A stretch of 57,290 nucleotides of DNA from an uncultured virus (IMG/VR IMGVR_UViG_3300045970_000330). Lineage: Duplodnaviria > Heunggongvirae > Uroviricota > Caudoviricetes. Both the position numbers and the translations under genes were made by a program. Below are positions 3,571-52,089 of the stretch, in pieces (the first letter of the stretch is position 1; every line of letters starts with the position of its first letter). Below the pieces are notes generated by a model. The model was not told the DNA's origin. It made no database searches and saw only the letters and a list, made by a program, of their open reading frames with translations. Location of the stretch: the IMG/VR virus record IMGVR_UViG_3300045970_000330; one strand, 5' to 3'.

Positions 3571-5469
3571 ATGCACCAAAGTCAGTATCAACAGTTCATT
3601 CACCTAAGTCGCTACGCCCGGTGGCAGGAAGCTAGTAAGCGGCGGGAAACTTGGGATGAAACTGCTGATAGGTATGTAGACTACATTGCCAAGAAGTGCC
3701 CCCAGGTGCCCACTGAGGTTATTGAAGAAATTCGAGGGGCTATTAAGAGCCACCAAATTATGCCGTCTATGCGTGCCCTTATGACAGCGGGTAAGGCTTT
3801 AGATCGTGATAATGCTGCGGGATACAACTGCGGATTCTTGGCGGTAGATCATCCTAGGGCATTTGACGAAGCGCTATACTTGCTCGCATGTGGTGTAGGT
3901 GTTGGATTTAGCGTTGAACGCCAGTTCGTTAATCAGCTACCAACGGTTAGTGAGACATTTCACACTTCGTCTAATGTCATTACGGTTGGGGACTCGAAGA
4001 TTGGTTGGGCTACGGCGCTCAAGGAGCTGATTTCGCTTCTATACGTGGGTGAAGTCCCTACATACGACACGAGCAAAGTGCGGGCTGCTGGTGCGCGCCT
4101 GAAGACCTTTGGGGGGCGTGCAAGCGGTCCCGAGCCCTTGGAGCAGTTGTTCAAATACACCATTGCCCTGTTCCGGCGAGCCGCTGGACGCAGGCTCACA
4201 TCTATTGAGTGCCACGATCTTATGTGCAAAATCGCAGACACTATCGTGGTTGGTGGTGTGCGTAGATCAGCGCTTATTTCCTTGAGCAACCTGTCTGATG
4301 ACCGCATGCGCAATGCTAAATCGGGACAGTGGTGGGAAGCTCATCCAGAGCGGGCATTGGCTAATAATTCAGTCGCTTATACAGAGCGTCCTGAGATTGG
4401 CGCCTTCATGGGGGAGTGGAAGTCCCTGTATGATTCCAAAAGCGGAGAGCGCGGCGTAGTGAATCGCGGAGCAGCTAAGCGGGCAGCTATTGCTAATGGG
4501 CGGCGTGACCCCAATTATGACTTTGGCACTAATCCTTGTGGCGAAATCTTCCTGCGTCCCAATGGATTTTGCAATTTGACTGAGGTTGTTATCCGCGCTG
4601 GGGATGACATGGTAAGTCTGCGTAACAAGATTAGACTTGCTACTATTCTAGGCACCATGCAGTCCACCTTGACTGATTTCCGCTACCTACGATCAGTCTG
4701 GAAGAAGAACGCAGAGGACGAACGACTCCTAGGGGTAAGTCTTACGGGTATTATGGATAACTCCACCATGAACGGATCGGCGGGCATGGAGCAGCTTGAG
4801 GGCTCCTTAGTTCTTCTTAGGAATCATGCTATTGCTGTAAATAAGGATTATGCACAGTTACTGGGAATTAATCAAAGCACAGCTGTTACCACTGTAAAAC
4901 CATCAGGCACTGTTTCGCAGTTAGTTGATTCTGCTTCGGGTATCCACCCACGCTACTCGGAATACTATATCCGCACGGTTCGTGGCGATAAAAAGGACCC
5001 CCTTAGTCAGATGATGTTCATGAGTGGCATCCCTGCGGAGGATGAAGCGCGCCGCCCTGATGATATGTGGGTATTCTCGTTCCCCCAAAAATCACCAAAG
5101 GGTGCCATTTTGAGGAATGACAGAACCGCGCTAGAGCAGCTAGACCTGTATCTCGCATATAAGCGCTCATGGGCAGAGCATAATGTTTCCATCACGTGTT
5201 ACGTCAAGGAAGCCGAATGGTTGGAAGTTGGCGCCTGGGTTTATCGACATTGGGATTTGGTAGGTGGTGTATCGTTTCTACCACATGACGAAGGAACTAC
5301 GAGCTACGTCCAAGCACCTTACCAGGAAGTAACCAAGGATGCCTACGAAGCCCTGCTAGCAAAAATGCCCGATCTAAACTGGGATCTACTCAAAGAATAC
5401 GAAAAAATTGATTCCACTACAGGCAGCCACGATCTTGCCTGTGCTGCGGGCGGCTGTGAAATAGTGTGA
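3571..5469 (+). CDS. nrdJ: Class II (adenosylcobalamin-dependent) ribonucleotide reductase
   Basis: YNCGF, GGVRRSALI, TNPCGEI, CNLTE, TTVKPSGT and C-terminal CAAGGC. Start moved to the ATG after GGAG. Confidence 0.95.
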   Translation: MHQSQYQQFIHLSRYARWQEASKRRETWDETADRYVDYIAKKCPQVPTEVIEEIRGAIKSHQIMPSMRALMTAGKALDRDNAAGYNCGFLAVDHPRAFDEALYLLACGVGVGFSVERQFVNQLPTVSETFHTSSNVITVGDSKIGWATALKELISLLYVGEVPTYDTSKVRAAGARLKTFGGRASGPEPLEQLFKYTIALFRRAAGRRLTSIECHDLMCKIADTIVVGGVRRSALISLSNLSDDRMRNAKSGQWWEAHPERALANNSVAYTERPEIGAFMGEWKSLYDSKSGERGVVNRGAAKRAAIANGRRDPNYDFGTNPCGEIFLRPNGFCNLTEVVIRAGDDMVSLRNKIRLATILGTMQSTLTDFRYLRSVWKKNAEDERLLGVSLTGIMDNSTMNGSAGMEQLEGSLVLLRNHAIAVNKDYAQLLGINQSTAVTTVKPSGTVSQLVDSASGIHPRYSEYYIRTVRGDKKDPLSQMMFMSGIPAEDEARRPDDMWVFSFPQKSPKGAILRNDRTALEQLDLYLAYKRSWAEHNVSITCYVKEAEWLEVGAWVYRHWDLVGGVSFLPHDEGTTSYVQAPYQEVTKDAYEALLAKMPDLNWDLLKEYEKIDSTTGSHDLACAAGGCEIV

Positions 5470-5520
5470 CTTGACACAACGCCCGGTGGTAACAATCAAT
5501 AACCTAACAAGGAGCTATAC

Positions 5521-8382: not shown

Positions 8383-8458
8383 GGGGCTATAGCTCAGCTG
8401 GGAGAGCGCCGCGTTTGCAACGCGGATGTCGCAGGTTCAAGCCCTGTTAGCTCCACCA
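8383..8458 (+). tRNA. tRNA-Ala(UGC)
   Basis: Canonical 76-nt cloverleaf with G3:U70, loop TTTGCAA and encoded CCA. Confidence 0.97.
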
Positions 8459-8610
8459 ATATTCCTATACGAATAAAAATATCCTAATAGGAATATTTCA
8501 AAAAGTCTGCCTACCCTGGGGGCACGGAGATCCATATGTGCGGAGAAATCCAGCTAGATCCCAACTGTCACAGTCAAACAGATACTTACTGCACTAGGGT
8601 TGGAAACACT

Positions 8611-8696
8611 GGGGGCGTGGTGGAATAGGTCTACACAGCATCTTTAGAAGGTGCCGCGTTAAACGCTTGCGAGTTCGAGTCTCGCCGCCCCCACCA
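8611..8696 (+). tRNA. tRNA-Leu(UAG)
   Basis: Type II cloverleaf with GCATC-TTTAGAA-GGTGC, TTCGAGT T-loop and ACCA. Confidence 0.95.
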
Positions 8697-8726
8697 CCCC
8701 AAGTAACCATAATAAATGGACAATTA

Positions 8727-8809
8727 CCCCTGATGATGGAATGCATACATAGCTAACTTAAAATTAGCCGCCCTAGGGATTGCGGGTTCAAGCCCCGCTC
8801 GGGGGACCA
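8727..8809 (+). tRNA. tRNA-Leu(UAA)
   Basis: GCTAA-CTTAAAA-TTAGC, variable arm, TTCAAGC T-loop and ACCA. Confidence 0.93.
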
Positions 8810-8855
8810 ATTCTTGTTTATACAAGTCAACGTAATACCCTTTTGGAGTAATACC

Positions 8856-9341
8856 ATGTCCTACCCTTACGACAAACTCAGCTCTGCACTGTATGAGCTG
8901 GGTAAGAACAACAGCACTACCTACACGCTTTACAGCACCTGGATTTACGAGGGGGGTTACCCCGGCGGCACCAAAGTGTGTCGGGCGCTGACTCAAGCCG
9001 CTGGCATCGAATGGGTGAGGGAGCAGCTGGGCACCTGGAGTAACGCTCTTACTCTGAGTGACATCGCGGCAGGGCTCCTAATTATCTCCCACCTAACAGG
9101 TCATTCGTATAATTGGTGCTACCCCGAACTAACACGCGATGGTGTCATCATTTACACAGGTAATGCGGATGCGGTCCTTACCTGGATCATGGCGGAACTG
9201 AATAACCCTAATAATCCCCTACCGGATGGCACAGGCACCACCAACGATGATGCTAAGGGAATCGTGCATCTTTCGGACGTTAACTGGGAAATCTACGATG
9301 CGTGGGTTCTAGCAAATGCTAATGGACCCTCGGACGTTTAG
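8856..9341 (+). CDS. Hypothetical protein, paralogue of 9426-9713
   Basis: GGAG RBS; shares W..P.L..D..II.TG....VLTW....LNNPNN.LP with the next gene. Confidence 0.85.
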   Translation: MSYPYDKLSSALYELGKNNSTTYTLYSTWIYEGGYPGGTKVCRALTQAAGIEWVREQLGTWSNALTLSDIAAGLLIISHLTGHSYNWCYPELTRDGVIIYTGNADAVLTWIMAELNNPNNPLPDGTGTTNDDAKGIVHLSDVNWEIYDAWVLANANGPSDV

Positions 9342-9425
9342 ACAAATAGCATGGAATACATACGCCCCCACTACATAAGTGGTGGAGGCATTACATCCTA
9401 GTAAAACACCTACCTGGAGTAATTA

Positions 9426-9713
9426 ATGGCGCTACCTTACCCCTGCGATACGCTGATTCACGCAATCGCCACCCTAAACCGATATGTAGTGGGTGAATAC
9501 ACCTGGGTTAATCCCGACCTTCTTCTTGACGATACGGTGATCTTCACCGGAACCGAGGAAGATGTTCTGACTTGGGTGTGGGCGGTGCTTAACAACCCCA
9601 ATAATTCCCTTCCCGTACACCCCTGGAAGGAGCAGTACCTTAGGGATGATCCAGGGCTTGAGTTTGTTGAATATGAACCCATGCCTGATATTCCTACGGC
9701 GAATGAAGGTTAG
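9426..9713 (+). CDS. Hypothetical protein, paralogue of 8856-9341
   Basis: Same TGGAGTAAT leader and shared motif. Confidence 0.85.
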   Translation: MALPYPCDTLIHAIATLNRYVVGEYTWVNPDLLLDDTVIFTGTEEDVLTWVWAVLNNPNNSLPVHPWKEQYLRDDPGLEFVEYEPMPDIPTANEG

Positions 9714-9759
9714 TAAGTAATTTCTAAAGCGGCGCCGCAGCGCTTAATCTGCGGCACTT

Positions 9760-9835
9760 CCTCCCGTAGCTCAGCGATCAGAGCTGTCGGCTCATAACCG
9801 ACTGGTCCTAGGTTTGAATCCTAGTGGGGGGACCA
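9760..9835 (+). tRNA. tRNA with CAU anticodon (elongator Met or lysidine-type Ile2)
   Basis: 76-nt cloverleaf with GTCGG-CTCATAA-CCGAC and ACCA. The paired 1:72 base pair rules out an initiator. Confidence 0.92.
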
Positions 9836-9950
9836 GCTTGTTCCCGCTCTCCCAAAAGGCTTGGCATCAGCCCGTCTGACGAATGGCGCGACTTGGGATC
9901 GGGCTTGAGTGAGTCTGAGAGCGCGCTAGTCGCGTGGGTAGGACTCCACC

Positions 9951-9982
9951 GGGGAGTAGCCATATGGTGCTCCCCCTTTTTT
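9951..9982 (+). terminator. Intrinsic terminator
   Basis: GGGGAGTA..TGCTCCCC stem followed by a T run. Confidence 0.8.
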
Positions 9983-10309
9983 GAGTGTTCCGCCCCAAAC
10001 ATCAGTGCGGTTGGGTGTTTACGGTCTGAATAGCACACAGCCAGCAAAATAGATGATGCTGGCAATCGTTGGGGGCATCGAGGGCATCGCGTTTTCAAGA
10101 CCTATAACCGCAGAGTAGCTTACTGCAAGGCTTGCCGATGAGCGACCTGGACCCTCTACCAAACCCACCCACACACCTCTAGCGTTGATGGATAGCCCGC
10201 TACTCATGCGGATTCTCAGTCTTGAAAACGGTAAGTGCAAATAGTGACCCGCATTAACGGGTATCGCTCCGTAGACGTATGGAGAGTGGGTATATCTTGA
10301 AGGAGCCCC

Positions 10310-10651
10310 ATGAGCAAGCAGCTAGAACAACTATTCAAGATTGATCAAATCCACTATCTATGTGTTTACCTGGGCATCGCCACACGTATGGCTACAATAT
10401 CAGGTAGTAACAAGTGGTTCCTACATTACGATGTCGGATCAAGAACCTTCACAGCACTCAATGGTTGGAAGGAGCCCAAGACGGATACCTTTTACACGGA
10501 ATCCAGGCGCCCGCCCGACTTCACAACAAATGAACATCGACACTCCCTGCATCAGATGTATCGCTCTCTCTGGATTGAGTGTGAAAAGAAAGCCATGGCA
10601 GCCCTAGTCGCTAGGGAAATGCGTGGATACGGAATTGAACCCATGCCTTGA
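10310..10651 (+). CDS. Hypothetical protein
   Basis: AAGGAG RBS. Confidence 0.8.
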   Translation: MSKQLEQLFKIDQIHYLCVYLGIATRMATISGSNKWFLHYDVGSRTFTALNGWKEPKTDTFYTESRRPPDFTTNEHRHSLHQMYRSLWIECEKKAMAALVAREMRGYGIEPMP

Positions 10652-10698
10652 CACATCGTGTGTCTTGTCACAACGCTTTACTATCTCTAGGAGAAGTT

Positions 10699-10890
10699 AT
10701 GGAACGCAAGAACATCAGTGAATTTCTCGGGCGCAAGCGCGCTATCGAAAAGGCGATCCGCTACGGTTATGGGCACGCTGAACTCTGCTCCATGCTGGAC
10801 GTGTCCCACGGGACCATGAGTCGCCTGCTGCTTGCGCTGTTTGGGCAGAATCTCACGCAGATCCGTGCAGAGTGGGGCATTGTAGCCTAG
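10699..10890 (+). CDS. Small helix-turn-helix protein
   Basis: AELCSMLDVSHGTMSRLL; AGGAG RBS; upstream TTGACA and TGTGTCTTGTCACA operator. Confidence 0.65.
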   Translation: MERKNISEFLGRKRAIEKAIRYGYGHAELCSMLDVSHGTMSRLLLALFGQNLTQIRAEWGIVA

Positions 10891-10896
10891 AACACG

Positions 10897-10983
10897 GCTG
10901 GGGTGCCGCAGAGGTCTACCGGACGGGATTTGTAACCCCGCAGCGAAAGCTAGTCGCAGGTTCAAATCCTGTCCCCAGCTCCA
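10897..10983 (+). tRNA. Atypical tRNA-Thr(UGU) with a long variable arm
   Basis: GCTGGGG/CCCCAGC-T-CCA, CGGGA-TTTGTAA-CCCCG, V-arm AGC-GAAA-GCT and GCAGG-TTCAAAT-CCTGT. Confidence 0.8.
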
Positions 10984-15804: not shown

Positions 15805-16118
15805 CAAACGGTGCAATAAAAATTTGGGTAAGGTAAACAAGGAGTCCGTTCACAGCGGACTCCTTATTTGTATCGCCCTGACCTATAAGATGCAAGAAAT
15901 ATTTTAGAAAGATCCTTGACAGGACCAATGGATATGCGAAGGGTGGCTTTGACTCAACTTTCCACATATTGAACAGGGCGTGAGTCGATTACGTGCGATA
16001 ATCGCTTCATAGATTATAACCCAAATCATTTCTAGGTTTCGATAAGTGTTCTTATGTAACATTACCATAAAGGAATATTAAAACTCGCCCGGGTGGTAAC
16101 AAAATCAAAGGGGCGCCC

Positions 16119-16379
16119 ATGGATTACAGAGAAGCAAAGCAACGAGTTATGGCAGCAGCTGAGCGTGCAGTAAACAAGGATCTGGTTGTAGACCTAAATA
16201 TTCTCTGGAAAGCCAGTGGCAAGCCGTTCTTCCGGCGCCCATCCATTTGGATGCGGCAGAAGGCACTCAATGTTGAGCTGGAGGTTGGTCCTCGTAGAGA
16301 GGTATTTGCAGGGGCAGCGGGGATTCAAAGCTATGTCGCGTGGTTGTATCCCCAGGTGGACTTCAAGCCCCTACCTTAG
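16119..16379 (+). CDS. KilA-N-like DNA-binding protein (short)
   Basis: VDLNILWKASG..RRPSIWMR and YVAWLYP resemble KilA-N. Confidence 0.55.
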   Translation: MDYREAKQRVMAAAERAVNKDLVVDLNILWKASGKPFFRRPSIWMRQKALNVELEVGPRREVFAGAAGIQSYVAWLYPQVDFKPLP

Positions 16380-16422
16380 TGGTGGTAACAACCCAAGTAG
16401 ACGAGCTACATTCGAGGTGCCC

Positions 16423-19274
16423 ATGCAGCCTATCCAAGATGCAACCCTAGTCAAGCTACTAGCACTGGCGGTCCAGGGCTTAACTCGGGCGGAACTGGAT
16501 AATGAGCTGCTTGCTGCCTACGGCTCCGAAATGGAAGTAGAGGTTGCACAGTCCTTCGGTGAGGTTATTTTCTCGCGCCGGGGTCGCTGGTTATTTGTGG
16601 GCAACTGCTTCCAATTTATGTATGCATCCGACAGCCCGGGTGTGCATAAGATTTTCATTCAGAGGCTATCTGTAGATGGTAATCGGCGCGCAGTTAGTCA
16701 GGTCGCCATGGTTGCTGACACAGCAGAGCTAGCCTTGGATAGAAGCATCCTATTTATTCAACAGCTGGAGTGTGCAATATGAATGCGACAAGTCACAGAT
16801 GGATGAATGAAGTGCAGGCTGGACCAACCATGTCCTATGACCGCTATGCCCTAGCAGCCATGCGGGAGAAGTGCAGCGCCGCCCTACCTACGAGAACTCT
16901 GGTTACTAATAAAGCGCTGCCCTTTGAGTTTCAGCATCTGGCTAATAGAATTTTGGAGAGCGACCTATCTGACCTTACGGAGCTTTGGCATGATATTCAG
17001 CGTCAGATCATTGACACTAATTATAGAACGCCTTACGATGCTGGATTTGGTTTCCTCCCCCTACCCCGTAGCGACTGGCTCCCCTCCGAGGGTTGCTGGG
17101 CTGAGGTTCCTGATTTCCCGGGTTGGCGTTTTACACGTAGTTCCCACTCACGAGTTCCGTTTGCTCTTGATGTGAAGGGTGATGTTATGCGGACTTACCG
17201 TGCGGACACCATGACGCACATCGGCTATACAGGCAGTCATCCGTCTGAGCGAAATTCGGAAGACCACAACATGGCATTCCGTGTTGACTTTCCTAATTCA
17301 CCCTCAGATGCAATCTGCCGCATGCTTTTAGTAATTATGCTATATCAATGGAATTGTGGGGCTGGTTTTCGTGGATGAGACTATGCACCTATTGATTACT
17401 AGCATAGAGTCCCTGCCCTTCTCTGACGTATATGCCGAATGGTGTAAAGTGGGCTATAACCGAGCGGTGCTACCTACGCAGACTATTGTGCTGGAATGGC
17501 GTAAAGGTATGCGCGAGAATCCGCAGTTGGTAAACATTGTAAGCGCTCAAGTGCGGCGCGCTGGTTTCGTGGTTAGGCAGACTAGGAACTGGGGCAGCAA
17601 AGATGACTTCCGTATTGGTGTAACACTTACAGATGATCGCCCCGTTGCAGAATTAGGTGAAATGGGAGCCATCAAGTTCAGATTGTTGGCGTTCAACTGG
17701 ATCGAAGCCTGGGTGAAGACTCAGTATCTATTACACATGCTGGGTGTTGACACCCACTACGAGGACTCAAATGAATCCGACACCCCCCACACCCAAGGTT
17801 AAACCCACTAACACCCATTCGGTGCTTACCCTCAGCTGTGAAGGTAAGCTGGCGATGCTTCAGGTGAAGGGCAAATTCATGTGTATGGTCCTCCCGGTGC
17901 CCGAGGGACACCTACCGCTGGGGATTGTGCTGGAGTCTTTCAACACGATGGGCATTTCTAAGCTCAGTATTATTGAGCGCCTTGCCATAGGTAAGGTGTT
18001 TCAGCGTTATCTGCCTCGCATGTATTATCACAATTTCAGGGTGAACATTACCCGAGTCGAGCTGGGGTTGATGGCTGCTGCACTGGGTGATCCTGAGCAA
18101 AAGCTAGTTCTTGTAGCTGAAAGCGAGGATCTGCTTGCCCTGTTGGATGAGTTTACTGTTGCTTTGTTGAATGACATTGACACCACTCCCGCCCCTATGG
18201 ACGGTGGTAACAATCTGTAGCGGTATCCCGCAGCTATCTATAACCCGGTGGAAACCCACCCCAAGTCCCGAAAGGACTATTCAATGACTGAACGCATGAC
18301 GGTAAAGCAGTTTGTTGGTAACCCCGAAGTCCAGGTAACCGCTGAGGTCCATAAGCGCCTGATGCCCTGGTTCGTGAAGCACGAAGAACTGATCAACACG
18401 TGGTTCCAGGGTGAGATTGTGGACAACAGTATCGAGCTGCCCCTGAACAGCGATGAGTTTGCGGGTGTGGGTATTGATATGCCCCTCGCGGTCTACACAC
18501 CTGTGAATTGGGAAGGCATCCCCGAGGAAGAAAAGCCTCGCCTGCGCACTCAGCTTCCTGAGGGTCAGGACGAACCCGCAGCTGACTTCTCGGTGCTGCG
18601 AGTGACGCTTAATGATGCCAGCATTGTAGAGTTCATTAAGGCTCAGGCTATTGATGAGCCTCTCACGGAGCAGTATTACCTCGCCATCATGATGCGGCAC
18701 TATGTGGGCGAGAACGCTCATCGTGTCTACCCCATGTGGAAGATGAACCAGCTGCTCAAAGCTGAGGAACAGGCACTCAATTCTGCTGGCGCTCTCGATG
18801 TGGACGTGATCGAAACCGAAGTCATCGAGCCTACTAAGTAGCATGGACTCGATTCGTGATCTACTCCTGGATCTCTGGACCCGCAATCCTCGCGCAACCG
18901 AGCGGCGGGTCCAGCAGGAGCTTGAGCAGGAGGTAAACAAGATCGTAAACAAGCTCGTAGTAGACATCACAACCACACCTGAGAACTGGCACAGCCCCTA
19001 TGCAATGCATCTATACACCGCCGACTGGCTCCTTGAGTGGAACACTACCAAGGGTATGGATCTTATGCGGGGAACTCAGTTCGCTACAGGTAAACGAGAG
19101 CAGCATCCTAGTGTGTTCAAAACCAAGGTAGCCATACCACTTACCTGGGGACAAAAGAGGAAGCTCAAGAAAGCCGCTGCTGTATGGGGCGACCTATACC
19201 TCCGCAAACGGGCACTAGAGGCATCCATATCCACCCTGGAACAGCTCGTAATCATCAATCAAGACCCTTCCTAA
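16423..19274 (+). CDS. Run of six hypothetical genes (16423-16782, 16779-17378, 17383-17802, 17771-18220, 18284-18841, 18843-19274)
   Basis: Tightly packed co-oriented ORFs with RBS or overlaps; GGTGGTAACAA at 16381 and 18203. Confidence 0.75.
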
Positions 19275-19283
19275 AGGATACAC

Positions 19284-19514
19284 ATGAAAGTCTTTGTAGG
19301 TATCGCTCTAATCTTCCTGGGGATCGCCCTGGGATTGTATGTGGGTTTGTATGTCTGTCTGTATGGCGGCATCGTATCCATCATCGCGGGTGCACAGATC
19401 GGAGCTGCTGGCGTGATTGCCTGGGGCATCATCAAGATTCTGTTCGCCAGTGTCGCCGGGGGGCTCACTACCGCACTCACTATGGCTGTCGCAGCCGCCT
19501 TTCTGGAGCGCTAG
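19284..19514 (+). CDS. Small membrane protein (2-3 transmembrane segments)
   Basis: AAGGA RBS; almost entirely hydrophobic. Confidence 0.75.
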   Translation: MKVFVGIALIFLGIALGLYVGLYVCLYGGIVSIIAGAQIGAAGVIAWGIIKILFASVAGGLTTALTMAVAAAFLER

Positions 19515-19515
19515 G

Positions 19516-21324
19516 ATGATTACCCTTCGCTGTATTGTGTGTGGCATGTCACATAGCGTGGATGCCGAAGCGCCCACCACTCCCCTGGAATTGGCATGCC
19601 TTGCCGTTAACTCGGGCATGGGTGTTGTCACCACTCCCACCATCACGGATGTCATCTGCTCTAAGTCTTGTGCGGATGTCCACAACTTCCTTCTTCCCGC
19701 TAAACACTCTCCCGCCATTGAGCGGTTGGTCTTCTAGGAGCCACCTTGAGCAACATCATTTACCGCGCCGACACCGAACTGCTTGGCGAAGTCTTGGATT
19801 ACATGACTGGCAATCCTAAGACCATGCATGCGGGGGTATTCACACTGGAGCGCTTTATTGATGCTTTGGTGGACTTCACCCCCAGTAACTTCGAGCGCGC
19901 AATGTTGACGATGAAATTCAGCGAACTTGCTGGTGAGGATGTGGATCTACCCCTCAGTGTGTGGTTGGAATCCGGGGATTTTGAAGATGAGTTGTGCACT
20001 CTTGAACTGTGCCCTGCCGATGCTCTGTATTTGATTGAACTCTCGGCAGCTCATCCCCAGGTTGTCTACGACTTCCCACAGGAGTTCATGGAATTTGCTG
20101 GGTTGGGTCTTGCCCAGCGCACGATTGCCGAGCAGCAGATCAACGACGATCCCGATGACGATGGTTACGGTGATAGGTTCGATCTCGATCCTGATTGCGA
20201 GAACTGCACGGATCGGGATTGTGATATGCATCCCCTAACCGTCAACTAGAACCTACCTGGGTGTTGCATGGAACGTGTAGTTGCACGGGGCGTGCAACAC
20301 CCAGGACTAGGCAACGGAGGTCATATGCATTGCCCCCTATGTAATGTGCAGCTTACCTCATGGGGTCCACATATGTGTCAGATGCCCATGCCCTACCGAC
20401 AGCCTGCCTACACAACCCCCGGAAGTATTGGGTGGCTATGTCCTAGGTGCGGGCGCGGGAATGCCCACACTACCCCAACGTGCCCCTGTATGTCCTCCCC
20501 CATCACGATTACTTGCCAGAGTTGACATGAGCGACGATTTCTCGAATGTAGCACCAGTCCCCCAGTCATCCTATCGCTGCTCTGTATGTGGGGCACTCAC
20601 GCATTATGTAGAGCGATGGGACTCGTATGCCTGCAAGAAGTGCAACAGGTGGCAGGAAGATACTTGCTTGGATTCCACGTGCGGGTATTGCGGTGGGCGC
20701 CCCGATCTGCCGGTGGTGTCCAGAAGTGGACAGTAGTGACTACCTTCAAATGCAAGCTGTGTTCTAGGAACTGGAGCATGGGCGCCACTCGGGATTACCG
20801 GGATGACTGCGCATGCAGTTTCTGCCTACAGTTAGAAGTCCATCAACAGAAGCAGCTGCTGAAGAATATGCATGCTGAATTGGAGTGCAGCACCTTACCC
20901 GGGGGCGAACCCGCAAAGATCATCGAAACAGTAATCAGCATGCTGCTTCGGTATCTCAAGCCCGCCCTGGAAGACGGTTATATCCCGCCCCATACCCGAT
21001 GCCCTCACGCGCAGGAGTGCACCCTAGCTGCTGTAGCTGGAGCTTGTGCCCACAAGGGACTGAAGCACGACTCTCTGTATTACTGCGCAGCAGCCCGCGC
21101 CTACGCCATCATCCACAAGGAGTTTTGATATGACCTTAGAGGAATACCTACAGCGCTCACATGATAAGGGAATCATTGATCATGCTGTGCGCGCCACCCA
21201 CCAGCACCACCCCAACGGCAACATGGTCTTCTACATCCACCCCATGAATACGGACGGCGACACCCCCAGCTACCGTGTGAGTGGCAATAAGCTCACCACC
21301 GTCATCTACCGAGAGGAAAACTAA
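19516..21324 (+). CDS. Cluster of small hypothetical genes, most Cys-rich zinc-finger-like (19516-19737, 19746-20249, ~20323-20525, 20527-20736, ~20736-21128, 21130-21324)
   Basis: Repeated CxxC pairs and contiguous packing. Confidence 0.65.
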
Positions 21325-21880
21325 TGGGACTTGTCGCAGCACTCAAGTCATGGAAAACATATTGGGACGGAGAGATCAGCGTTCCAGCCGCCAAGCCCAA
21401 ACCCAGGCGTGTAGAGATCGACCTGATATACGTCAAGGACATCCGTTACCTCTACGACATCTACATGGAAACCCCCGCTAAGTCAGATCGCGGCGCCCAT
21501 TACATCTTGTGGATGGAAATCGCCCGGGTCTGTGCTGAGGTCCGCAATGAACCCGAGACTACTTGGGAGCTAGCCTTCCCCGCCTACAACCGTGTCACCG
21601 TAGTGGAGGTTCTGTGAGCATGGCTAGCATTAAGGAGTTCATCCAGAAGTATAAGCCCGTTGCTCCTAGACAGCCCCGGGTGTTCTCACTCAGCGAGGAC
21701 GCTCAACAGCAGATCCGCAGGTTGGATGACACCTACCACCGCACGCCAAAACGCTACGATGCTGAAGCCCACTTCCTGCTGTGGAGCGCCATAGCCGAGC
21801 TGGTCCCTGAGGTCCGCAAGGGCACGTGGAAGATCGACCACCCGGATGCCCTCACCACCACCATCACGGAAGAACTGTAG
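21324..21880 (+). CDS. Two tandem paralogous small genes (21324-21617, 21620-21880)
   Basis: IR.L.D.Y..TP....AH..LW..IA....EVR...W is shared by both. Confidence 0.8.
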
Positions 21881-21885
21881 GCGGT

Positions 21886-22134
21886 ATGAGCGAGCGTAAG
21901 ATGACATGCACCATCAGGGCTATGCACTACCAGGGCGCCGCTAAGCACATGCTATTAGACATGGCTTTTCGACAGCCCGGGATGACGGAGGCTAGAGCTG
22001 AAATAACCATGCCCCTTGAGCGTGCCCTAAAGCTAGCCCCCTGGATGACATTCAACGGCATCATCGAATACCGTAGCCACTATGACGGCGGTAATCAGTG
22101 GATCGTAGACTGGGATAACCCCTTACCGCAGTAA
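21886..22134 (+). CDS. Hypothetical protein, last gene of the block
   Basis: AGGCGG RBS; followed by a hairpin. Confidence 0.7.
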   Translation: MSERKMTCTIRAMHYQGAAKHMLLDMAFRQPGMTEARAEITMPLERALKLAPWMTFNGIIEYRSHYDGGNQWIVDWDNPLPQ

Positions 22135-22145
22135 ACCAGCCTAAG

Positions 22146-22184
22146 CAGCAAGCAGCCCTCGCTAACCCCGGGGGCTTTGCTGTA
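22146..22184 (+). terminator. Probable terminator hairpin
   Basis: CAGCAA..AGCCCTCG / GGGGGCT.TTGCTG; weak U tract. Confidence 0.5.
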
Positions 22185-22832
22185 TCCAGAATTATGCCGC
22201 CCCGCATGAGTGCTGCATTTGAATAACATTTACCCCTTAGAGAGTACCACCCAGGACACCCAACTACACAACCTTGTGTAACTAGCCTGTTCGATAATAC
22301 ACCCACGTTCACCAATGGGCGAACATGACATAGCAGCCCGCTAGAGGCACGGTAAGGCTGGATGCTAGGTAAGCCTACCCGGGTAATACCCACCCCGTGT
22401 AGGGGTCTTGTAGCCCCGTAAAGGGCACGTATGGATACGACTACCCAAATGGATACGCCTATCCCCACAACTACACAACACTGTGTATGTGCAGGTCGTT
22501 ATACGGGTGCCCAGGTGTTCGGATGTGGACACCACGTTTATAGGGGACTTACGGGGAATAGCTACCCGGTGTGGGACATGTCACAAAGTGTAGGTGTGTG
22601 GGTGGGTGGTGTGGTGGGAGGTTGGAGTCAAGGTCGGAGTCAAGGTGGACCGCCCCGTCCTAAGTAATATACGCAAAGGGTTTGCGGCAATTCTATACCC
22701 AGCCTCGTTTCTTTCCTTTTGAAACGGAACACGAGTTATCAATCCTTCATTCCTTCATTTTTTTATTTCCCTGAGTCTAGGTGTTCACCATCCATTCCCT
22801 ATCCACCTTCACTCTACTATCACGAGGTAACG

Positions 22833-22937
22833 ATGTCCGCCGCCGTCCTGTCCGCCCTTGTCCCTGTCCGATGGTCCCTAGTCCTTTGGTCTGGTTCGGT
22901 CCTGTCCGCCGCCGTCCTTGTCCTTGTGTCCTTTTGA
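22833..22937 (+). CDS. 34-aa hydrophobic peptide
   Basis: GAGGT RBS before the ATG. Confidence 0.45.
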   Translation: MSAAVLSALVPVRWSLVLWSGSVLSAAVLVLVSF

Positions 22938-22944
22938 GGTCCGC

Positions 22945-23361
22945 ATGATCCGCCGCGCCGTCCTTGTCCTTCTGTCCCTGTCCGCCCTTGTAGCGGTCCT
23001 TGTCCTTGTGTCCGCCCTGGTCTCCGAGTGCAGAGTCTTTAACACTCATAAGGACGCCGCCCTTGTTTCCATGTCCGCCCTTCTGGTGGACGCCGCCGCG
23101 CGCCCTTCTGTGATGTCCGCCGCGCGCCGTGTCGTCAAGGGCGCGGGCGCCGTGTCCGCCCGTGTCCCCGTTAAGGGCGCCTCGTACGATCTAGCGGCGG
23201 GCGCCCTTCTGACCTATCAGGACGGCGGCGCGGTCCTTGTGTCATCTGTATGGATGGCAGACAAGGACGGCGCGCCCGGTAGCGTGGTCTATATCGGCGC
23301 CGTGTCCGTTCCTGTCCCTGTCCTTGTGCCCGTTTCCGCCCTTAAAAATTTCAATGAGTGA
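22945..23361 (+). CDS. Hypothetical membrane-anchored or secreted protein
   Basis: GAGGT RBS; MIRR followed by a long hydrophobic segment. Confidence 0.55.
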   Translation: MIRRAVLVLLSLSALVAVLVLVSALVSECRVFNTHKDAALVSMSALLVDAAARPSVMSAARRVVKGAGAVSARVPVKGASYDLAAGALLTYQDGGAVLVSSVWMADKDGAPGSVVYIGAVSVPVPVLVPVSALKNFNE

Positions 23362-23449
23362 TCACCAGGTCATGATGCAATTTGCATCATACCTTCACCG
23401 GGCGCCCGTGCGCGCCCTTTTCGGACCTCGTGTCCGCCGGAGTTATATC

Positions 23450-24448
23450 ATGTCCCTGTCCGCCCTTACCCTGTCCCTCACGGCGCCCGCCGCCGCCCTT
23501 CCCTCGGATGCATCCGACACGGCGCGCCCTTCTGCCCTGTCCATTGAATCCGCCGCCGTCCTGTCCGATACCATGCGCGCCGCCCTTTGCGCGCCGTTCA
23601 AAGATATTTCAAAGGACCGCGCCGCTAATATCGCCATCCAGGGCGCCGCCCTTCATCCCGCCGCCGCCGCCGCCGCCGCCCGTGGTATCGGATGGTACGA
23701 GGCAATGCCCGCCGCGCCCGTGCTCATGATCGGCGCCGATGTGTCCGCCGCCCTGTCCGCCGCTATCGGCGCCCTGTCAATGAGTGTTCAGGGCGCCGCC
23801 GCCGCCGCCTATACCATCCGCCGCTCATGTGCCCTTGTAATCCGCGCCCTTGTGTCCCTAGACGCCGCCCGTTTCCATCCGTTACTCGAAACGGGCGCCC
23901 TGTCCGCCCGGGATGCAGTATCCGCCGCCGCCGTCCTTGGGATCATGCCCGCTGTTGAATTTGGCGCCCTGTTAGATCGCTGGATGACCAAGGACCGCGC
24001 CGCCGCCCGCGCCCTTGCCCTGGACGCCGCCGCTCGAAAATCCGCCCTTGCGTCCTTGCGCAAAAATTGGGAACGGGCGCGCAAAGATGAAGGGTACAGC
24101 GCGCCCGATAAGGACAAGGACGCCGCCGCCGATGACAAGGACGCCGCCGCCGATGTCCAGACCGCGCCCGCGCCCTTACCATCCGCCGCCCTGTCCGCCG
24201 CCGTCCTGTCCGCCCTGGTAATGAATCCCGCCGCCCTGTCCGCCGCCCTTGGAACACTGGACGCCGCCGCCCTTGTCATCCTGTCCGCCGCCGTGTCCGC
24301 CGCCCTGGTGGATGCATCCGCCGCCGCGCCCGCGCCCGATGTCCAGACCGCGCCCGCCCTTGAAACGGCGCCCGTGTCCCTGGACGCCGCGCCCGCTACC
24401 GCCGCCGCGCCCGCCCGCCGCCGCCGTCAGACCGCGCCCGTAGAATAG
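23450..24448 (+). CDS. Ala-rich 332-aa hypothetical protein
   Basis: GGAG RBS; non-repetitive islands such as RGIGWYE, FHPLLETG and LRKNWERARKDEGY suggest a real protein. Confidence 0.7.
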   Translation: MSLSALTLSLTAPAAALPSDASDTARPSALSIESAAVLSDTMRAALCAPFKDISKDRAANIAIQGAALHPAAAAAAARGIGWYEAMPAAPVLMIGADVSAALSAAIGALSMSVQGAAAAAYTIRRSCALVIRALVSLDAARFHPLLETGALSARDAVSAAAVLGIMPAVEFGALLDRWMTKDRAAARALALDAAARKSALASLRKNWERARKDEGYSAPDKDKDAAADDKDAAADVQTAPAPLPSAALSAAVLSALVMNPAALSAALGTLDAAALVILSAAVSAALVDASAAAPAPDVQTAPALETAPVSLDAAPATAAAPARRRRQTAPVE

Positions 24449-25983
24449 GCGCCGCCCTTGTCCCTGTCCTGTCCGCCCGCCGCCCGTGTATCGCGTCAAT
24501 TCGAGCGATACACGGGCGGCGCCCTGTCCGCCCTTGCGTTAAACGGCGCCGCCTATACATCGGGCGCCGTTTACCAGAAGGACGGCGGCGCCGTGTCATG
24601 CGCGCCCGCCCTTGTGTCCCTGTCCTGTCCTTGTGAATCACTCATAAGGGCGGCGCGCCCGTGTCCCTGTCCTTGTATCGTCCACCAGGGCGCGCCCTTG
24701 TCCGTTCCTATGATGTCCACCAGGGCGCCGCGCCCTTGTGACCGCTACCAGGGCGCCGCCCTTGGTCCTGTCACGCCGCCGCCCTTCTGTCCCTATACCG
24801 CGCCCTTGTCCGCCGTCCTTGTGACCGCTACCAGGGCGCGCCGCCGTGTCCCTGGTAGCGTCCAGGGCGCCGCCGTGTCCCTGTCCTTGTCCTTGTCTCA
24901 TATCGTCCAGGGCGCGCCGTGTCGCGCCGCCCTGGTGATCATATCGCGGCGCCCTGGTAGCATCGGGCGCCCTGGTGAACTAGGTATTTCTTACCTAGTT
25001 CGTTTTTATAGCGTGACACCTGTCACGCCGCGCCGTGTCGTGTCCGATACCGCCGCCGTTCGGTCCTTGATTACTCTATGGATTCGAGCATAGATTTTTG
25101 ACATCAGATATTTTTATCCGAATTTAGTTTTTTTCGGGTCGCGTTAGCTCTGTTCATGGGACCATATTCCAATCCTGGAATGATCCTGGGATTTTTGATT
25201 CCCAGGTAGGCGTGACACCTGTCACGCTGTCCCCTGATTCACGCGATACCGCGCCATTCGGATAAAATAATATCTACCATCATCTTGAGGGCTGGGATGC
25301 TCTAGGATGTGGTCTATTGCAAGGGCGTTTTTGTAGTGCTGGAATGTCGTGAGACATACCTAGAATTACACTAGCGGGCTCGACCTATGTTTACGGCGTG
25401 TGTCGTAATACATGGGCGCCGTAGGTTTGCTGATTTCTAGCAGCCTATGCCATACCCTTGTAACGCTTAGAATAGGGCGTGACACCTGTCACGCTTGATT
25501 TCTAGTGATTAGATGGACCCTCCCATGCGCCGAGGAATCGGATAAAGGACAGGGATGATGACATAGAAATAAGGGAAAGCAGAGGCTCTAGCGGGCGTCA
25601 ATTACAGGTATTCGGAGGATACTTGGGTCACGCTCGTGAGTTAAACCAGAGGTTGGCAGCCTCTACCTTTGCAATCGCCTCCCATATGCTAGGTGTAAGG
25701 ACCACCGATAAACCTAGCGGGCGTGGGCTGCACTCTGTTTTAGGACAGCTGGTAGCCTGGGGACTATCATGGGCGCCCCTAGTCTTGGATCTATTTCCAG
25801 GGCTGGGGCGCCGCCCCTAATCCCCGATGTATCAATAACTTTTTAGGTCACGAGAGCCGTATCCATTTGGTTTGGAGTGCGGCTTTGCTTTTATTTAGGG
25901 TGAAGCTAATTCAAATCGTGGATGTTCCCACGCTTATTAGTCTTGCGATAAGTCGCGGTAGTCGCGGCTTATGGGAGGGCTTT

Positions 25984-28416
25984 ATGCTTCAGGACATTCC
26001 TGATTACAACGGCAACACGATAGCCCATCATAGTGATTGGGCTACGCTTAAACTGAAGCGGGTAGCCGTCGCTGAAAATATCCATTGGAGGTTCTGCGCC
26101 GCCGCTGAAGCCCGCTTGGTAGAACTGGAGAAGGCATCCAGCTACTCCATGCCGTTCAAAACTATTACCGTCGAAGACATCGACACTCTGCTACCCTAAC
26201 CTTGTGACTTGTCACAGCGTGACACCTGTCACACCTTTCCCTGGAGTTACTATGAAAACCCTTCTTCTGCTGCTTGCCATCCTGATTGGGGTTGGCTGCA
26301 CTTCCCCCTCACCTGATCCTGCCAGGGCTGCTGCTTCCAAGCGCCAGGACCGCATCACAGAGGCGGATCGGCTTACCCTGCTCAATCGGCAACTCACCGC
26401 ACAGAATGAACGGCTGCGCCAAGAAGCAGCGCGCCGCGCCAAGTAATATCACCACCCATCACCCATAGGAGGCTCTTATGCCCAAGCACTACTATCACGA
26501 AGTGTCCGCTTTTGACACCCACCCCGGCACCATGCTGGTTTGCGCCGCCGCCTGTAAGACTCCTACCAAGAAGCGCGCCGCTGAACTGGTGAAAGAATAC
26601 AAGCAGATCGTGGGTGTCAATCACATTGAGGTAGAATCTGTCTTCGTAGAGGATGGCAAGCTGCTCACGGATAAGACGGTCTACCACGATCTGAACCCCA
26701 CCACGGGCACGTGGTCTGCGCTGGAAATGTAGCATGATTGCACATATTAGCTATCGGGAAGCCCTGCGGATTATGGCGTCTAACGGGGGGTTGTTACCTT
26801 GTATGTTCCGCGAAGCCGACGTCTACCATCGAGTCCACGGGCGTATCAAGATGGGCTATAACCTGGGCACCCGTAAGTGGAATCTGCTGTATTTCTCCCA
26901 AGATGCCCGCACCGTGATGGGTATGCTCAAGATCAATCACACTGAACTCGTAGCCCGTGAGGACCGGGCGCTGGGTATTTCCCACTAATATGATGGTTCT
27001 ACGAGAGCGCCCCTTGTCATGGGGCGTTCTAGTATGCCCATCAAAGGGTGTGCGCCCCCACTCTGTCTGTATATCAGCCAGGGGCGACAGCGCCAGAGGA
27101 TCAGCGCTGACTAAATGAAACCTCCCGGGGAGCGAGACTATCCCTACCAGCGCGAGCATAGCGCTCTACCACTGTGCTGTCTTGGGCTCCATCTATCATG
27201 TGCCCGCCCCGCCCGTTTTACGGGTGGGGTTCCTCAAACCGATTATCGTGATCGGTTTGGTGAACCCCTACAACACCGTGACACTTGTCACATATCTGGA
27301 GGCTCTGTATGTCGTATGGTAATGTTCTCCATCCTCAAGCGGTGTGGATTGCCCGGGGCTACGCCCTTGTGCGGTTCATCCCCAAGCTGGCGATCATGGC
27401 GGTAGGCGCCGCGATCATTAGTGCCGGTATCACCTATGGTAGCGTGGGAGCCACGATCATCGGTGCCACGTATTGCGCAGCTACGCTGCTGCTGCTGTTG
27501 CTCAAATGATGAACCGGGCGTTCCACATGACCGCTTGCATCATCTGCATGTTCATTGGACTTATGTCCCAACGCAAGTAACCCACCATGTCTTGTCATGG
27601 TTTCTAGGAGGCTTTATGCCTACCCCCGATGACAGCCAGTTTCTCCTGAGTGGAGAGCCCCCGCTGCCCGATAGCGTGACCTTCAAGCGCTATCTGGACG
27701 GCTACTACGCGACCGATGCGTGCAACGCTGGAGCTATCCTTCGTTCCCTGGCGCGGCACATGGATGCCGACCCCACGCTGCGCTTTGAGCGGCTTGCCCA
27801 AGACCCCGCAGCCCGCCTGATGATCTATCAGGTGGTCCTGCTCATGTTCGGAGAGCAGATGGATATGAACTCCACCTTCTCCATGGACTATCAGAAGTGC
27901 CGAGCGGTCTATGACTATCACCAGCTCGCTAAGGAGGCTCTCAATGATTGAGCGCTTGTTCGTTGTGTCCCCCTGCGGTATTGAGTCCTCGATGCCCGCC
28001 CATCTGCCCGATGCCATGCAGCGCGCTATGAATATGTGCGATAGCCTTATCATGGGGGATCGCCCTTGGGCTGAAGTTCTCCGGGGTTTCATGCCCAACG
28101 CTGATACCCACACCACCACCGTCTATGCGATCACTAAGGATGATCGCCGTCTGGATGCCTGATGAATAGAATCCTTGCCAAGCTTTACGAGACTCGTATC
28201 CGTCGAGGGCGTGAGATCGAGATCACCAACTTCCTGGGTGAAGGGCGCGATCTCCCCGCCCGTGATCCTGAGTTCAAACGAGAAATCACCAGCGCCCTTA
28301 TGCGCTTGGGCGTTAAGCTTCCCAAGCCCGAATTGAGGGAATTACTCTGCGGGGAGAAGCACATCTATAGCTCTACCCGCTGGGTTGCAATTCGTTACTA
28401 CCATATCAAGTTCTAG
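25984..28416 (+). CDS. Early-type small genes (25984-26199, 26252-26446 possible lipoprotein, 26478-26732, 26734-26988, 27309-27509 membrane, 27616-27951, 27944-28162, 28162-28416)
   Basis: Strong GGAGG(CT) RBS on most; MKTLLLLLAILIGVGC signal in 26252. Confidence 0.75.
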
Positions 28417-28445
28417 CTTCCCCCTGCCCGCGCCGTGTTTGTGAC

Positions 28446-28474
28446 TTGACACAGCGTGGGCTTCTTTGTATCCT
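28446..28474 (+). promoter_or_regulatory. Sigma70-type promoter
   Basis: TTGACA-N17-TATCCT with operators at 28440 and 28483. Confidence 0.75.
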
Positions 28475-51676: not shown

Positions 51677-52072
51677 ATGAAACTCTACATCGCTGCACGC
51701 TATCCACGAAAAGAAGAAATGCGTAAAGCTGCGGCAAAACTTACGATTGCTGGGCATAAAATCACAGCATCATGGTTGGATGAAGCCCACGCCCTTGATG
51801 TGCAGCTCGATGAGATTAGTCCTAAAGACTTGCAGCGTATGGCTGAAACTGACATACGGGATATTCTCAGAGCGGATGCCCTAGTTTTCTTTGCCGAGGC
51901 ACCCACAGCAACCTACCCCCGTGGTGGAAGGCACGTGGAATTTGGGGTCGCGCTTGCCCTGGACAAACCCATTTATGTGATAGGCGAAGTGGAAGAAAAT
52001 ATCTTTCACTACCTTCCCCAAGTCGTATTGATCCCTAGCGTAGAGAAGCTGCTTCTAGCCCTTCGGTGGTAA
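51677..52072 (+). CDS. Nucleoside 2-deoxyribosyltransferase / nucleotide N-hydrolase family protein
   Basis: KLYIAA, DIRDILRADALV and GRHVEFGVALALDKPI. Confidence 0.8.
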   Translation: MKLYIAARYPRKEEMRKAAAKLTIAGHKITASWLDEAHALDVQLDEISPKDLQRMAETDIRDILRADALVFFAEAPTATYPRGGRHVEFGVALALDKPIYVIGEVEENIFHYLPQVVLIPSVEKLLLALRW

Positions 52073-52089
52073 CAAATAAGGGGGTAAGA

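Follow-up and report, generated by a model that had tools for sequence, protein, structure and literature searches.

A tract of few-word vocabulary in an uncultured caudovirus, possibly an accessory transcription unit swollen by cryptically simple sequence

How can 2.2 kb of phage DNA be written in a handful of short words and still hold three open reading frames (ORFs)? The question is raised by positions 22833–25060 (hereafter the tract) of a 57,290-nucleotide stretch of the uncultured virus IMGVR_UViG_3300045970_000330 (Caudoviricetes). This stretch, referred to below as the window, is phage DNA and belongs to a contig of 119,290 bp from pond metagenomes. A first-pass annotation had described a sharply bounded, strand-polarised and aperiodic tract with three ORFs, built almost entirely from six words such as GCCGCC and TGTCC, and had offered three models for it, namely an array of Chi-like sites, DNA purged of restriction targets, and a binding or modification platform. 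Our own analysis favours another explanation, in which cryptically simple sequence has swollen an accessory transcription unit native to the phage; we give it a probability of about 0.45, a little short of even. The unit would comprise three orphan genes followed by a hairpin-rich untranslated tail of ~530 nt, and would end at an intrinsic terminator.

The restricted vocabulary is readily confirmed. The 6-mer entropy of the tract is 8.64 bits, compared with 10.4–10.5 in every other 2.2-kb chunk, and its 2223 hexamer positions hold 847 distinct 6-mers. Half of the tract is covered by 9 hexamers, where two control chunks take 60–69. Counted on the + strand only, the six words of the first-pass annotation span 44% of the tract; the same words span on average 3.4% (maximum 5.9%) of the 23 other chunks, and 9% (maximum 12.8%) of 200 dinucleotide shuffles. 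The polarity is as pronounced as first described, with +/− strand counts in the tract of 55/1 for TGTCC, 52/4 for GCCGCC, 92/5 for CCGCC and 29/4 for CCCTT. The borders are indeed sharp, the word cover per 100 nt climbing from 6 (22701–22800) to 50–87 inside and dropping to 0 at 25101–25200. On the left the border is the ATG of ORF1, and the vocabulary is in place from the second codon on.

The base composition of the tract (A 11.7%, C 39.2%, G 27.9%, T 21.3%) also differs from that of the window outside it (A 24.8%, C 25.6%, G 26.2%, T 23.3%), with a GC content of 65–70% vs ~52% for the window. Composition is nevertheless insufficient as an explanation, because simulated sequences stay at an entropy of 10.19 (Markov order 0) or 9.99 (order 1), while order 3 gives 8.81. 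Likewise, viral contigs with 72–74% GC show a word coverage of at most 0.32–0.40, against 0.73 in the tract. In its make-up the tract is a mosaic. A-free runs of at least 12 nt (C 46%, G 31%, T 22%) account for 1463 of its 2228 nt (~66%), and between them lie 765 nt of islands, 34% A, that consist of ordinary phage-type sequence; the runs are A-free on the transcribed sense strand only. The few-word vocabulary is therefore real, but "almost entirely" overstates it in view of the islands, and "aperiodic" is correct for long periods but not for the 3-nt register of the ORFs or for the many short tandem duplications described below.

That a DNA constraint overrides free codon choice, as had been proposed, is well supported. 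Synonymous codons were shuffled inside each ORF such that neither the protein nor the codon counts changed (n = 1000 for ORF3). The 6-mer entropy of ORF3 is 7.92, compared with 8.72 for the mean and 8.57 for the minimum of its shuffles, so that none of the 1000 was as low, and that of ORF2 is 7.74 against a shuffle minimum of 8.04. Words that cross codon borders are enriched 2–3-fold, as seen in ORF3 for TGTCC (17 vs 7.2 expected) and GCGCCC (18 vs 5.1 expected). The Ala codon GCG precedes CCC in 12 of 16 cases, and GCC precedes 11 of the 12 CTT and 10 of the 17 CTG codons of ORF3. Read from the sequence by eye, CTT is then followed by GTC and CTG by TCC, both of which spell TGTC. One word is in this way translated differently according to frame, giving Leu-Ser in one and (Leu)-Val or Pro-Val in another. 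Taken together, the shuffles and the reading of one word in two frames indicate that the bias acts on DNA. Within the genes, the words also keep to particular frames. GCCGCC lies in frame 0 (Ala-Ala) in 36 of 38 ORF3 cases and CCCTG in frame 1 in 13 of 13, while TGTCC occupies frames 0, 1 and 2 in 0, 26 and 10 cases over ORF1–3, and is thus never read as Cys-Pro. Alanine is encoded by GCC in 78 of the 103 Ala codons of ORF3, or in 86 of 122 when three frames are pooled (a count in which ORF2 is read one base off), and (GCC)n runs are present in the tract.

The ribosome-binding site in front of each ORF and the fixed frames of the words suggest that ORF1–3 are probably translated. Three ORFs led by ribosome-binding sites had been reported already, and GAGG or GGAG does stand 5–7 nt before each ATG (Table 1), but the start of ORF2 had to be corrected to 22945. 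The overlap of the ORF2 ribosome-binding site with the ORF1 stop codon suggests translational coupling. The open frame across ORF3 is longer than in 98.6% of shuffles, and the spacings of its repeats are multiples of 3. ORF2 is predicted to be membrane-anchored; its model has an N-terminal helix with a predicted local distance difference test score (pLDDT) of ~90 and is poor elsewhere (overall pLDDT 51). ORF3 has no confident fold (pLDDT 40, Atlas 0.38). The AlphaFold2 models of both proteins were too poor for a fold search, and Atlas look-alikes all scored below 0.9. The three proteins are probably accessory, that is, dispensable in the manner of moron products; a small hydrophobic peptide, a protein with a putative membrane anchor and a floppy Ala-rich protein would be products of a type common in phage accessory units.

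Searches for relatives returned little. ORF3 matched only itself among 1.84 billion representative proteins, and ORF2 only itself in a word-indexed search. No family was found for ORF2 or ORF3 in PHROGs or for the tract in Pfam, NCBIfam or PADLOC, ORF1 likewise giving no family match, and Rfam had nothing in the tract at either its gathering threshold or E ≤ 1. Megablast of 22000–26000 against catalogued phages gave no match. A 17-mer from the tract had 15 single matches in IMG/VR, all on GC-rich contigs and none of them word-rich. A TGTGAC-GTCACA palindrome (see below) had 49 single matches in IMG/VR and 79 in a collection of metagenome contigs that excludes the source contig. Among 143 loci collected in this way there was no relative of any window ORF at E < 1e-6, in a pipeline that had passed a sanity check, and tblastx of the first 64 of them was empty.

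The vocabulary continues past the stop codon of ORF3. As RNA, 24449–25010 folds at −282.9 kcal/mol compared with −212.4 for shuffles (z −10.7), while the coding parts of the tract fold at z −2.8, −1.8 and +1.5. A long open frame in 24449–25060 is unremarkable for its composition (p ~0.06) and crosses the terminator hairpin; since, in addition, tract words occur here in all frames, we read this part as untranslated. Thus 24449–25060 is not a gene but a non-coding tail. An open frame at 24458–25093 was also considered as a decayed paralogue of ORF2 and was dropped (E 0.15 vs ORF2). In addition to the hairpin that follows ORF3, the tail has a perfect 16-nt long-range inverted pair (24744–24759 and 24946–24961) and an array of ~290 nt that contains 8 of the 12 exact CCAGGGCGC copies of the window. 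This array is the only part of the tract that looks like a set of sites. Near the presumed terminator at 24977–25008, a sequence scan reported only a shorter stem. Directly after the tail come ~900 nt without a convincing gene, and in 24400–26300 as a whole we count 17 families of direct and 24 of inverted repeats, along with three exact copies of an 18-nt palindrome. The tail may have a part in transcript stability or processing, or may act as a cluster of DNA sites.

By analogy, the nearest described counterpart of the tail would be the untranslated repeat region of phage T5 with its injection stop signal, which is large, dense in direct and inverted repeats and palindromes, equipped with an ordered set of DnaA boxes, located in a long terminal repeat and conserved among relatives (bioRxiv 10.1101/866236). 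Unlike T5, the tract has no DnaA boxes nearby (TTWTNCACA occurs 5 times in the window and not once at 16.7–33.1 kb), nothing points to a terminal repeat or to injection in two steps, and the DNA polymerase is <28% identical to that of any catalogued phage (4008 matching records).

Table 1. Positions of the tract, its signals and selected features of the window
Feature	Position	Strand	Remarks
Large terminase gene	2-1315	−	PHROG match
Five tRNA genes	8383-10983		Ala-UGC, Leu-UAG, Leu-UAA, Met-CAU, Thr-UGU
TGGGACATGTCACA, copy of TGTGAC-N-GTCACA	22572-22585		~250 nt upstream of ORF1
Ribosome-binding site of ORF1	22824-22827	+	GAGG, 5 nt before ATG
ORF1	22833-22937	+	34 aa; grand average of hydropathy 1.76; 82% A/L/S/V/P
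Ribosome-binding site of ORF2	22936-22939	+	GAGG, overlaps ORF1 stop codon
ORF2	22945-23361	+	138 aa; N-terminal hydrophobic helix at ~residues 1-30
19-nt palindrome in ORF2-ORF3 spacer	23372-23390		two 9-nt arms, central T; found by eye
Ribosome-binding site of ORF3	23439-23442	+	GGAG, 7 nt before ATG
ORF3	23450-24448	+	332 aa; Ala-rich, low complexity, isoelectric point 5.8
Tandem duplication in ORF3	24113-24155	+	perfect, 21 nt × 2; Tandem Repeats Finder
Hyper-structured tail, read as untranslated	24449-24976	+	tract words in all three frames
Perfect 17-bp hairpin just after ORF3 stop	24478-24521	+	−38.2 kcal/mol (24474-24525)
(A/T)CCAGGGCGC array	24684-24976		6 forward copies (24684-24915), 2 exact reverse (24949-24976)
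Intrinsic-terminator-like hairpin	24977-25008	+	10 bp plus T-run; probable 3' end of unit, transcription stop predicted at ~25005
First exact GCGTGACACCTGTCACGC palindrome	25011-25028		last tract words (25029-25060) come after it
DNA polymerase gene	52066-54516

A purge of restriction targets was the second of the models proposed for the tract, and our data lead us to reject it. The window as a whole is indeed heavily purged. GGCC is found 0 times vs 179–249 expected and GTAC 11 times vs 172–214 expected, there are 442 six-bp palindromes vs 862 expected, with ~30 of them absent or nearly so, and type-IIS-like words (CTCTTC, GAGACC, CGTCTC) are near zero outside the tract. To our knowledge, this is among the strongest purges of restriction words met in such data, and avoidance so extreme implies that the restriction repertoire of the host is very large. 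The tract, however, shows less of this purge than its surroundings do. Its six-bp palindromes number 49 compared with a mean of 18.2 in control chunks and 42.7 in composition shuffles, with GGCGCC present 23 times, GCGCGC 14 times and GCGC 72 times, and the tract holds seven sites of words purged elsewhere (GTAC three times, CGCGCG twice, GGTCTC and GTCGTC). Words avoided by the genome occur at 6.7 per kb in the tract vs 0.56 per kb elsewhere, and only GGCC (0 vs 23–27 expected) and CCGG (4 vs 18) follow the genome-wide purge. Composition-matched random sequence from which all 136 avoided words had been removed still had a 6-mer entropy of 10.19, far from that of the tract. As a separate observation, GGCGCC, a tract word, is also the one GC-rich palindrome that the phage favours (47 vs 16.7 expected), and the palindromic octamer GGGCGCCC has 12 copies outside the tract, at 2270, 16111, 20695, 25771, 31627 and seven other positions, where we estimate that ~1 would occur by chance.

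How, then, did the words come to be there? The tract is native and not chimeric, as judged from a second assembly without differences (see below) and from the absence of GGCC, which it shares with the window. In its A-containing codons, the GC content at third positions (GC3) is 0.51–0.61 for ORF2 and ORF3 (ORF1 has 3 such codons), close to the 0.49 of ordinary phage genes, with counts of 12 GAT to 11 GAC and 7 GAA to 2 GAG; in the A-free codons GC3 is 0.74–0.88, and overall it is 0.70–0.76. Tandem Repeats Finder gave 21 rows in 22000–26000, where overlapping rows can describe one array. The periods in the ORFs are mostly 3, 6, 9, 12, 15, 18, 21 or 24 nt, with 13 and 16 as exceptions, whereas those in the tail are 6, 22 and 37 nt. 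Short duplication is ongoing, with a perfect 12-nt unit repeated 1.9 times inside the ORFs in addition to the 21-nt duplication of ORF3 (Table 1). A unit at 25218–25258, outside the tract, has copies at 25019–25059 and 24767–24807 that are written increasingly in tract words.

Cryptically simple sequence is the term for low-complexity regions made by replication slippage, of which length polymorphism is the usual hallmark. The tract shares with it a scrambled over-representation of few motifs, codon-pure runs, short tandem duplications and a single orientation. We infer that GC-rich, A-free units of 3n nt (GCC, CTGTCC, CTTGTC, GCGCCC) would have been copied repeatedly, always the same way round, so as to settle within and between segments of ordinary phage sequence, probably through slippage, short tandem duplication and template switching. 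Within the genes, selection would have retained the copies that keep the reading frame and avoid bad frames, while in the tail no such frame filter would have applied and inverted copies could have made the hairpins. Short-range copying combined with frame selection would account for the polarity, the codon purity and the frame pattern. The sharpness of the left border would also follow, because expansion further upstream would destroy the ribosome-binding site. A mutational drift from A to C was considered as well and was dropped, since random substitution is unable to create a vocabulary.

Several observations weigh against this explanation. The words are scattered over ~60 filler segments, whereas slippage normally gives tandem arrays, and many events or some homogenisation must therefore be assumed. 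Long exact repeats (k = 16) cover 26.7% of positions, compared with 13.8% in Markov simulations of order 4 and 32.1% at order 5. Repeats at about the Markov level do not establish that long segments were copied, and selection for words of 5–8 nt fits equally well. The lack of A on the coding strand of the filler and a Leu codon choice that always recreates TGTC are left unexplained, and the z-score of the tail hints at function rather than debris. Neither ORF2 nor ORF3 has a homologue or a confident fold (ORF1, with 34 aa, was not searched for homologues), so that the case for translation comes only from frames and ribosome-binding sites. The tract also departs from known cryptically simple sequence in its scale (2.2 kb with three genes and an untranslated region, in a virus), in its A-free filler and in codons chosen such that a word reappears where two of them meet, and none of the papers listed in a literature search on cryptic simplicity in bacteriophage concerns a phage tract.

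A rival still to be reckoned with, and a widened form of the binding platform first proposed, is that the words themselves are selected as a cis-acting array laid over the genes. The oriented A-free words (TGTCC/GGACA, GCCGCC, GCGCCC) would then be sites on DNA, or on the early mRNA with its high C content, at which a protein of the phage or the host acts (in coating, decoy or loading). Codon choice does appear to serve the words, with CTT/GTC and CTG/TCC both giving TGTC and GCG standing almost only before CCC; one word is read in two frames, the polarity is extreme, the vocabulary runs on into untranslated DNA, and the 290-nt CCAGGGCGC array resembles a set of sites. We still consider this putative array unlikely. 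It would have to consist of several unrelated words rather than one motif, and without fixed spacing; a Markov memory of about order 4 reproduces most of the pattern; and the left border coincides with a start codon to the base, although a platform on DNA need not respect one. It is similarly doubtful, on what the sequence offers, that the tract carries a second code at the DNA or RNA level, in which oriented A-free words (TGTCC, GCCGCC, GCGCCC and, in the tail, CCAGGGCGC) would serve some phage or host factor as a cis-acting platform of early infection to which codon choice is bent. Selection on the RNA alone has long odds. An A-poor, C-rich early transcript might evade A-dependent endoribonucleases or act as a Rho-loading or translation-checkpoint signal, with the 3' hairpins blocking exonucleases, and this would be in line with a sense strand that is the only A-free one, with 39% C vs 28% G on the + strand and with a tail that is far more structured than the coding parts. 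A-rich islands, however, follow one another at intervals of a few tens of nucleotides and leave sites for cleavage, and 28% G is high for a Rho site. The Chi-like array of the first-pass annotation, in which minus-strand sites of the GGCGGCGG type on the first-entering DNA would switch RecBCD/AddAB from degradation to recombination, is in our view highly improbable, although part of its reasoning holds. CCGCCGCC is found 34 times on the + strand of the tract and 0 times on the − strand, and immediately left of the tract there are 700 nt without genes that contain G-rich tandem repeats. The logic of orientation agrees with the published rule, and phages with many oriented, end-clustered Chi sites exist, for instance the lambdoid phages LLS, with 23 Chi sites of which 20 are in active orientation, and MD8, with 32 Pseudomonas Chi sites (PMC12315714). 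The tract would resemble these two in having an oriented, over-represented G-rich octamer on one strand. Unlike theirs, its octamer is no known Chi motif, is far denser than the LLS average of 1 site per 1.86 kb, and consists mainly of Ala codons of one gene. Indeed, 29 of the 34 CCGCCGCC copies lie in ORF3 and 0 in ORF2, and GGCGGCGG represents mostly in-frame Ala codons of ORF3, in keeping with the Ala-Ala frame of GCCGCC there. Six known Chi motifs (E. coli, Pseudomonas 8-mer and 7-mer, B. subtilis, Lactococcus, S. aureus) were searched for and are absent from the tract, except for AGCGG with 2 copies on the + and 8 on the − strand. A Chi array would also leave over the other, equally polar words TGTCC and CCCTT; unrelated words of this kind alongside the octamer set the tract apart from the terminal clusters of LLS and MD8. 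Two contigs of the second assembly, 105,685 and 13,513 bp long, meet at 26338–26344 and sum to ~119.2 kb, from which the assembly appears to behave as a circle without physical ends and gives no termini; the terminase gene is 22 kb off.

Could the tract instead have come from outside, or not be real? A foreign island, or moron, from a high-GC host would bring that host's codon usage and GC-rich intergenic hairpins. The higher GC content, a terminator of its own and the seven sites of words purged in the rest of the genome would fit this, as would a host that is GC-richer than the phage, which is suggested by the elongator tRNAs with U34. Morons are compositionally distinct, self-terminated units between gene blocks that encode small membrane-type proteins, and the tract is similar in these respects. 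High-GC organisms, however, typically have a GC3 of ~0.9, whereas that of the tract is only 0.70–0.76 and its non-filler, A-containing codons follow the phage pattern. No donor was found and no homologue of ORF2 or ORF3 in the searches described above, even viral contigs of 72–74% GC fall well short of the word coverage of the tract, and GGCC is still absent. We therefore regard a foreign origin as very unlikely. An artefact of assembly or sequencing is scarcely credible. It is true that the contig is a singleton, each protein that was looked up being on one contig only. A run from another study contains short contigs of the tract flanks (100% identical, depth ~3), and among the matches listed for that run, which has 114 further pieces, none lies inside the tract. 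On the other hand, a second assembly of the probable source run spans 16000–26344 with 0 differences at a depth of 14, so that two assemblers agree base for base over both borders; this assembly is only partly independent, because it was built from the same reads. Exact internal repeats are mostly <24 nt, the borders match a ribosome-binding site with ATG on one side and a terminator on the other, and islands and motifs of phage type occur within the tract. At 26338–26445, where the second assembly breaks, an alternative contig differs at 15 of 108 positions and looks like a strain-variation bubble.

The window around the tract is that of a phage distant from those catalogued. Apart from the terminase, its PHROG matches are on the + strand and include a head protease, ribonucleotide reductase, RNA ligase, deoxynucleoside monophosphate kinase, clamp-loader-like ATPases, a tyrosine recombinase and a family-A DNA polymerase. 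All four elongator tRNAs read A-ending codons. Homologues of the DNA polymerase with 56–62% identity were found in other public assemblies (P0004–P0008; contigs up to 57 kb), so that the phage lineage is not a singleton, although IMG/VR and the catalogued phages include no member of it. An alignment search of IMG/VR with the polymerase gave only matches of ≤33% identity; neither the polymerase nor a neighbouring protein has a close relative in that database. Among the species-representative genomes searched, one polymerase match with 34% identity was located in a Saccharibacteria metagenome-assembled genome. Both flanks of the tract carry small orphan genes on the same strand. Just upstream, the adjacent small genes 21324–21617 and 21614–21880 are paralogues (35% over 77 aa, E 7e-13). 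In the gene-free stretch upstream of the tract, the G-rich tandem repeats GTGTGGGT (3.9 copies) and AGGTCGGAGTCA (2.3 copies) occupy 22588–22646. The palindrome in the ORF2-ORF3 spacer is of normal composition.

Lastly, we noted several motifs that recur across the phage. The palindrome TGTGAC-N(2-4)-GTCACA has ~20 sites, with 29 strand-matches at ≤2 mismatches vs 0.66 expected, mostly just upstream of genes (for example at 5465–5478, 26203–26216 and 28440–28453), and is probably an operator or promoter element. Its copy TGGGACATGTCACA (Table 1) is possibly such an element for the tract unit. The 18-nt palindrome GCGTGACACCTGTCACGC has 7 sites, at 25011, 25210, 25477, 26217, 28482, 33441 and 35650, or 12 strand-matches vs 0.01 expected. 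At four of them, the ribosome-binding site of a gene follows after ~7–15 nt, and a TGTGAC...GTCACA site directly precedes the palindrome. The half-sites of GCGTGACACCTGTCACGC recall those of E. coli matS, with a spacer one base longer. A second promoter-like class is GGTGGTAAC(A), with 10 copies, all on the + strand and mostly intergenic (3528, 5485, 6270, 7084, 7556, 11512, 16092, 16381, 18203 and 52065). This class is found at 3.5–18 kb and before the polymerase gene, the 18-nt palindrome class at 25–36 kb, and the tract sits between the two.

If the tract did grow in this way as a native unit, viral cryptic simplicity would have in it a case of unusual size and clarity, in which three frames have stayed open while short DNA units proliferated. 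It would also illustrate from nature how orphan proteins of low complexity, and untranslated regions rich in hairpins, may arise in the accessory regions of phages. If the words are selected instead, 2.2 kb of this genome would serve two uses at once as a dense overlapping code, with a nucleic-acid function that dominates the protein. In either case, the purge of restriction words across the window is informative about the host of this phage.

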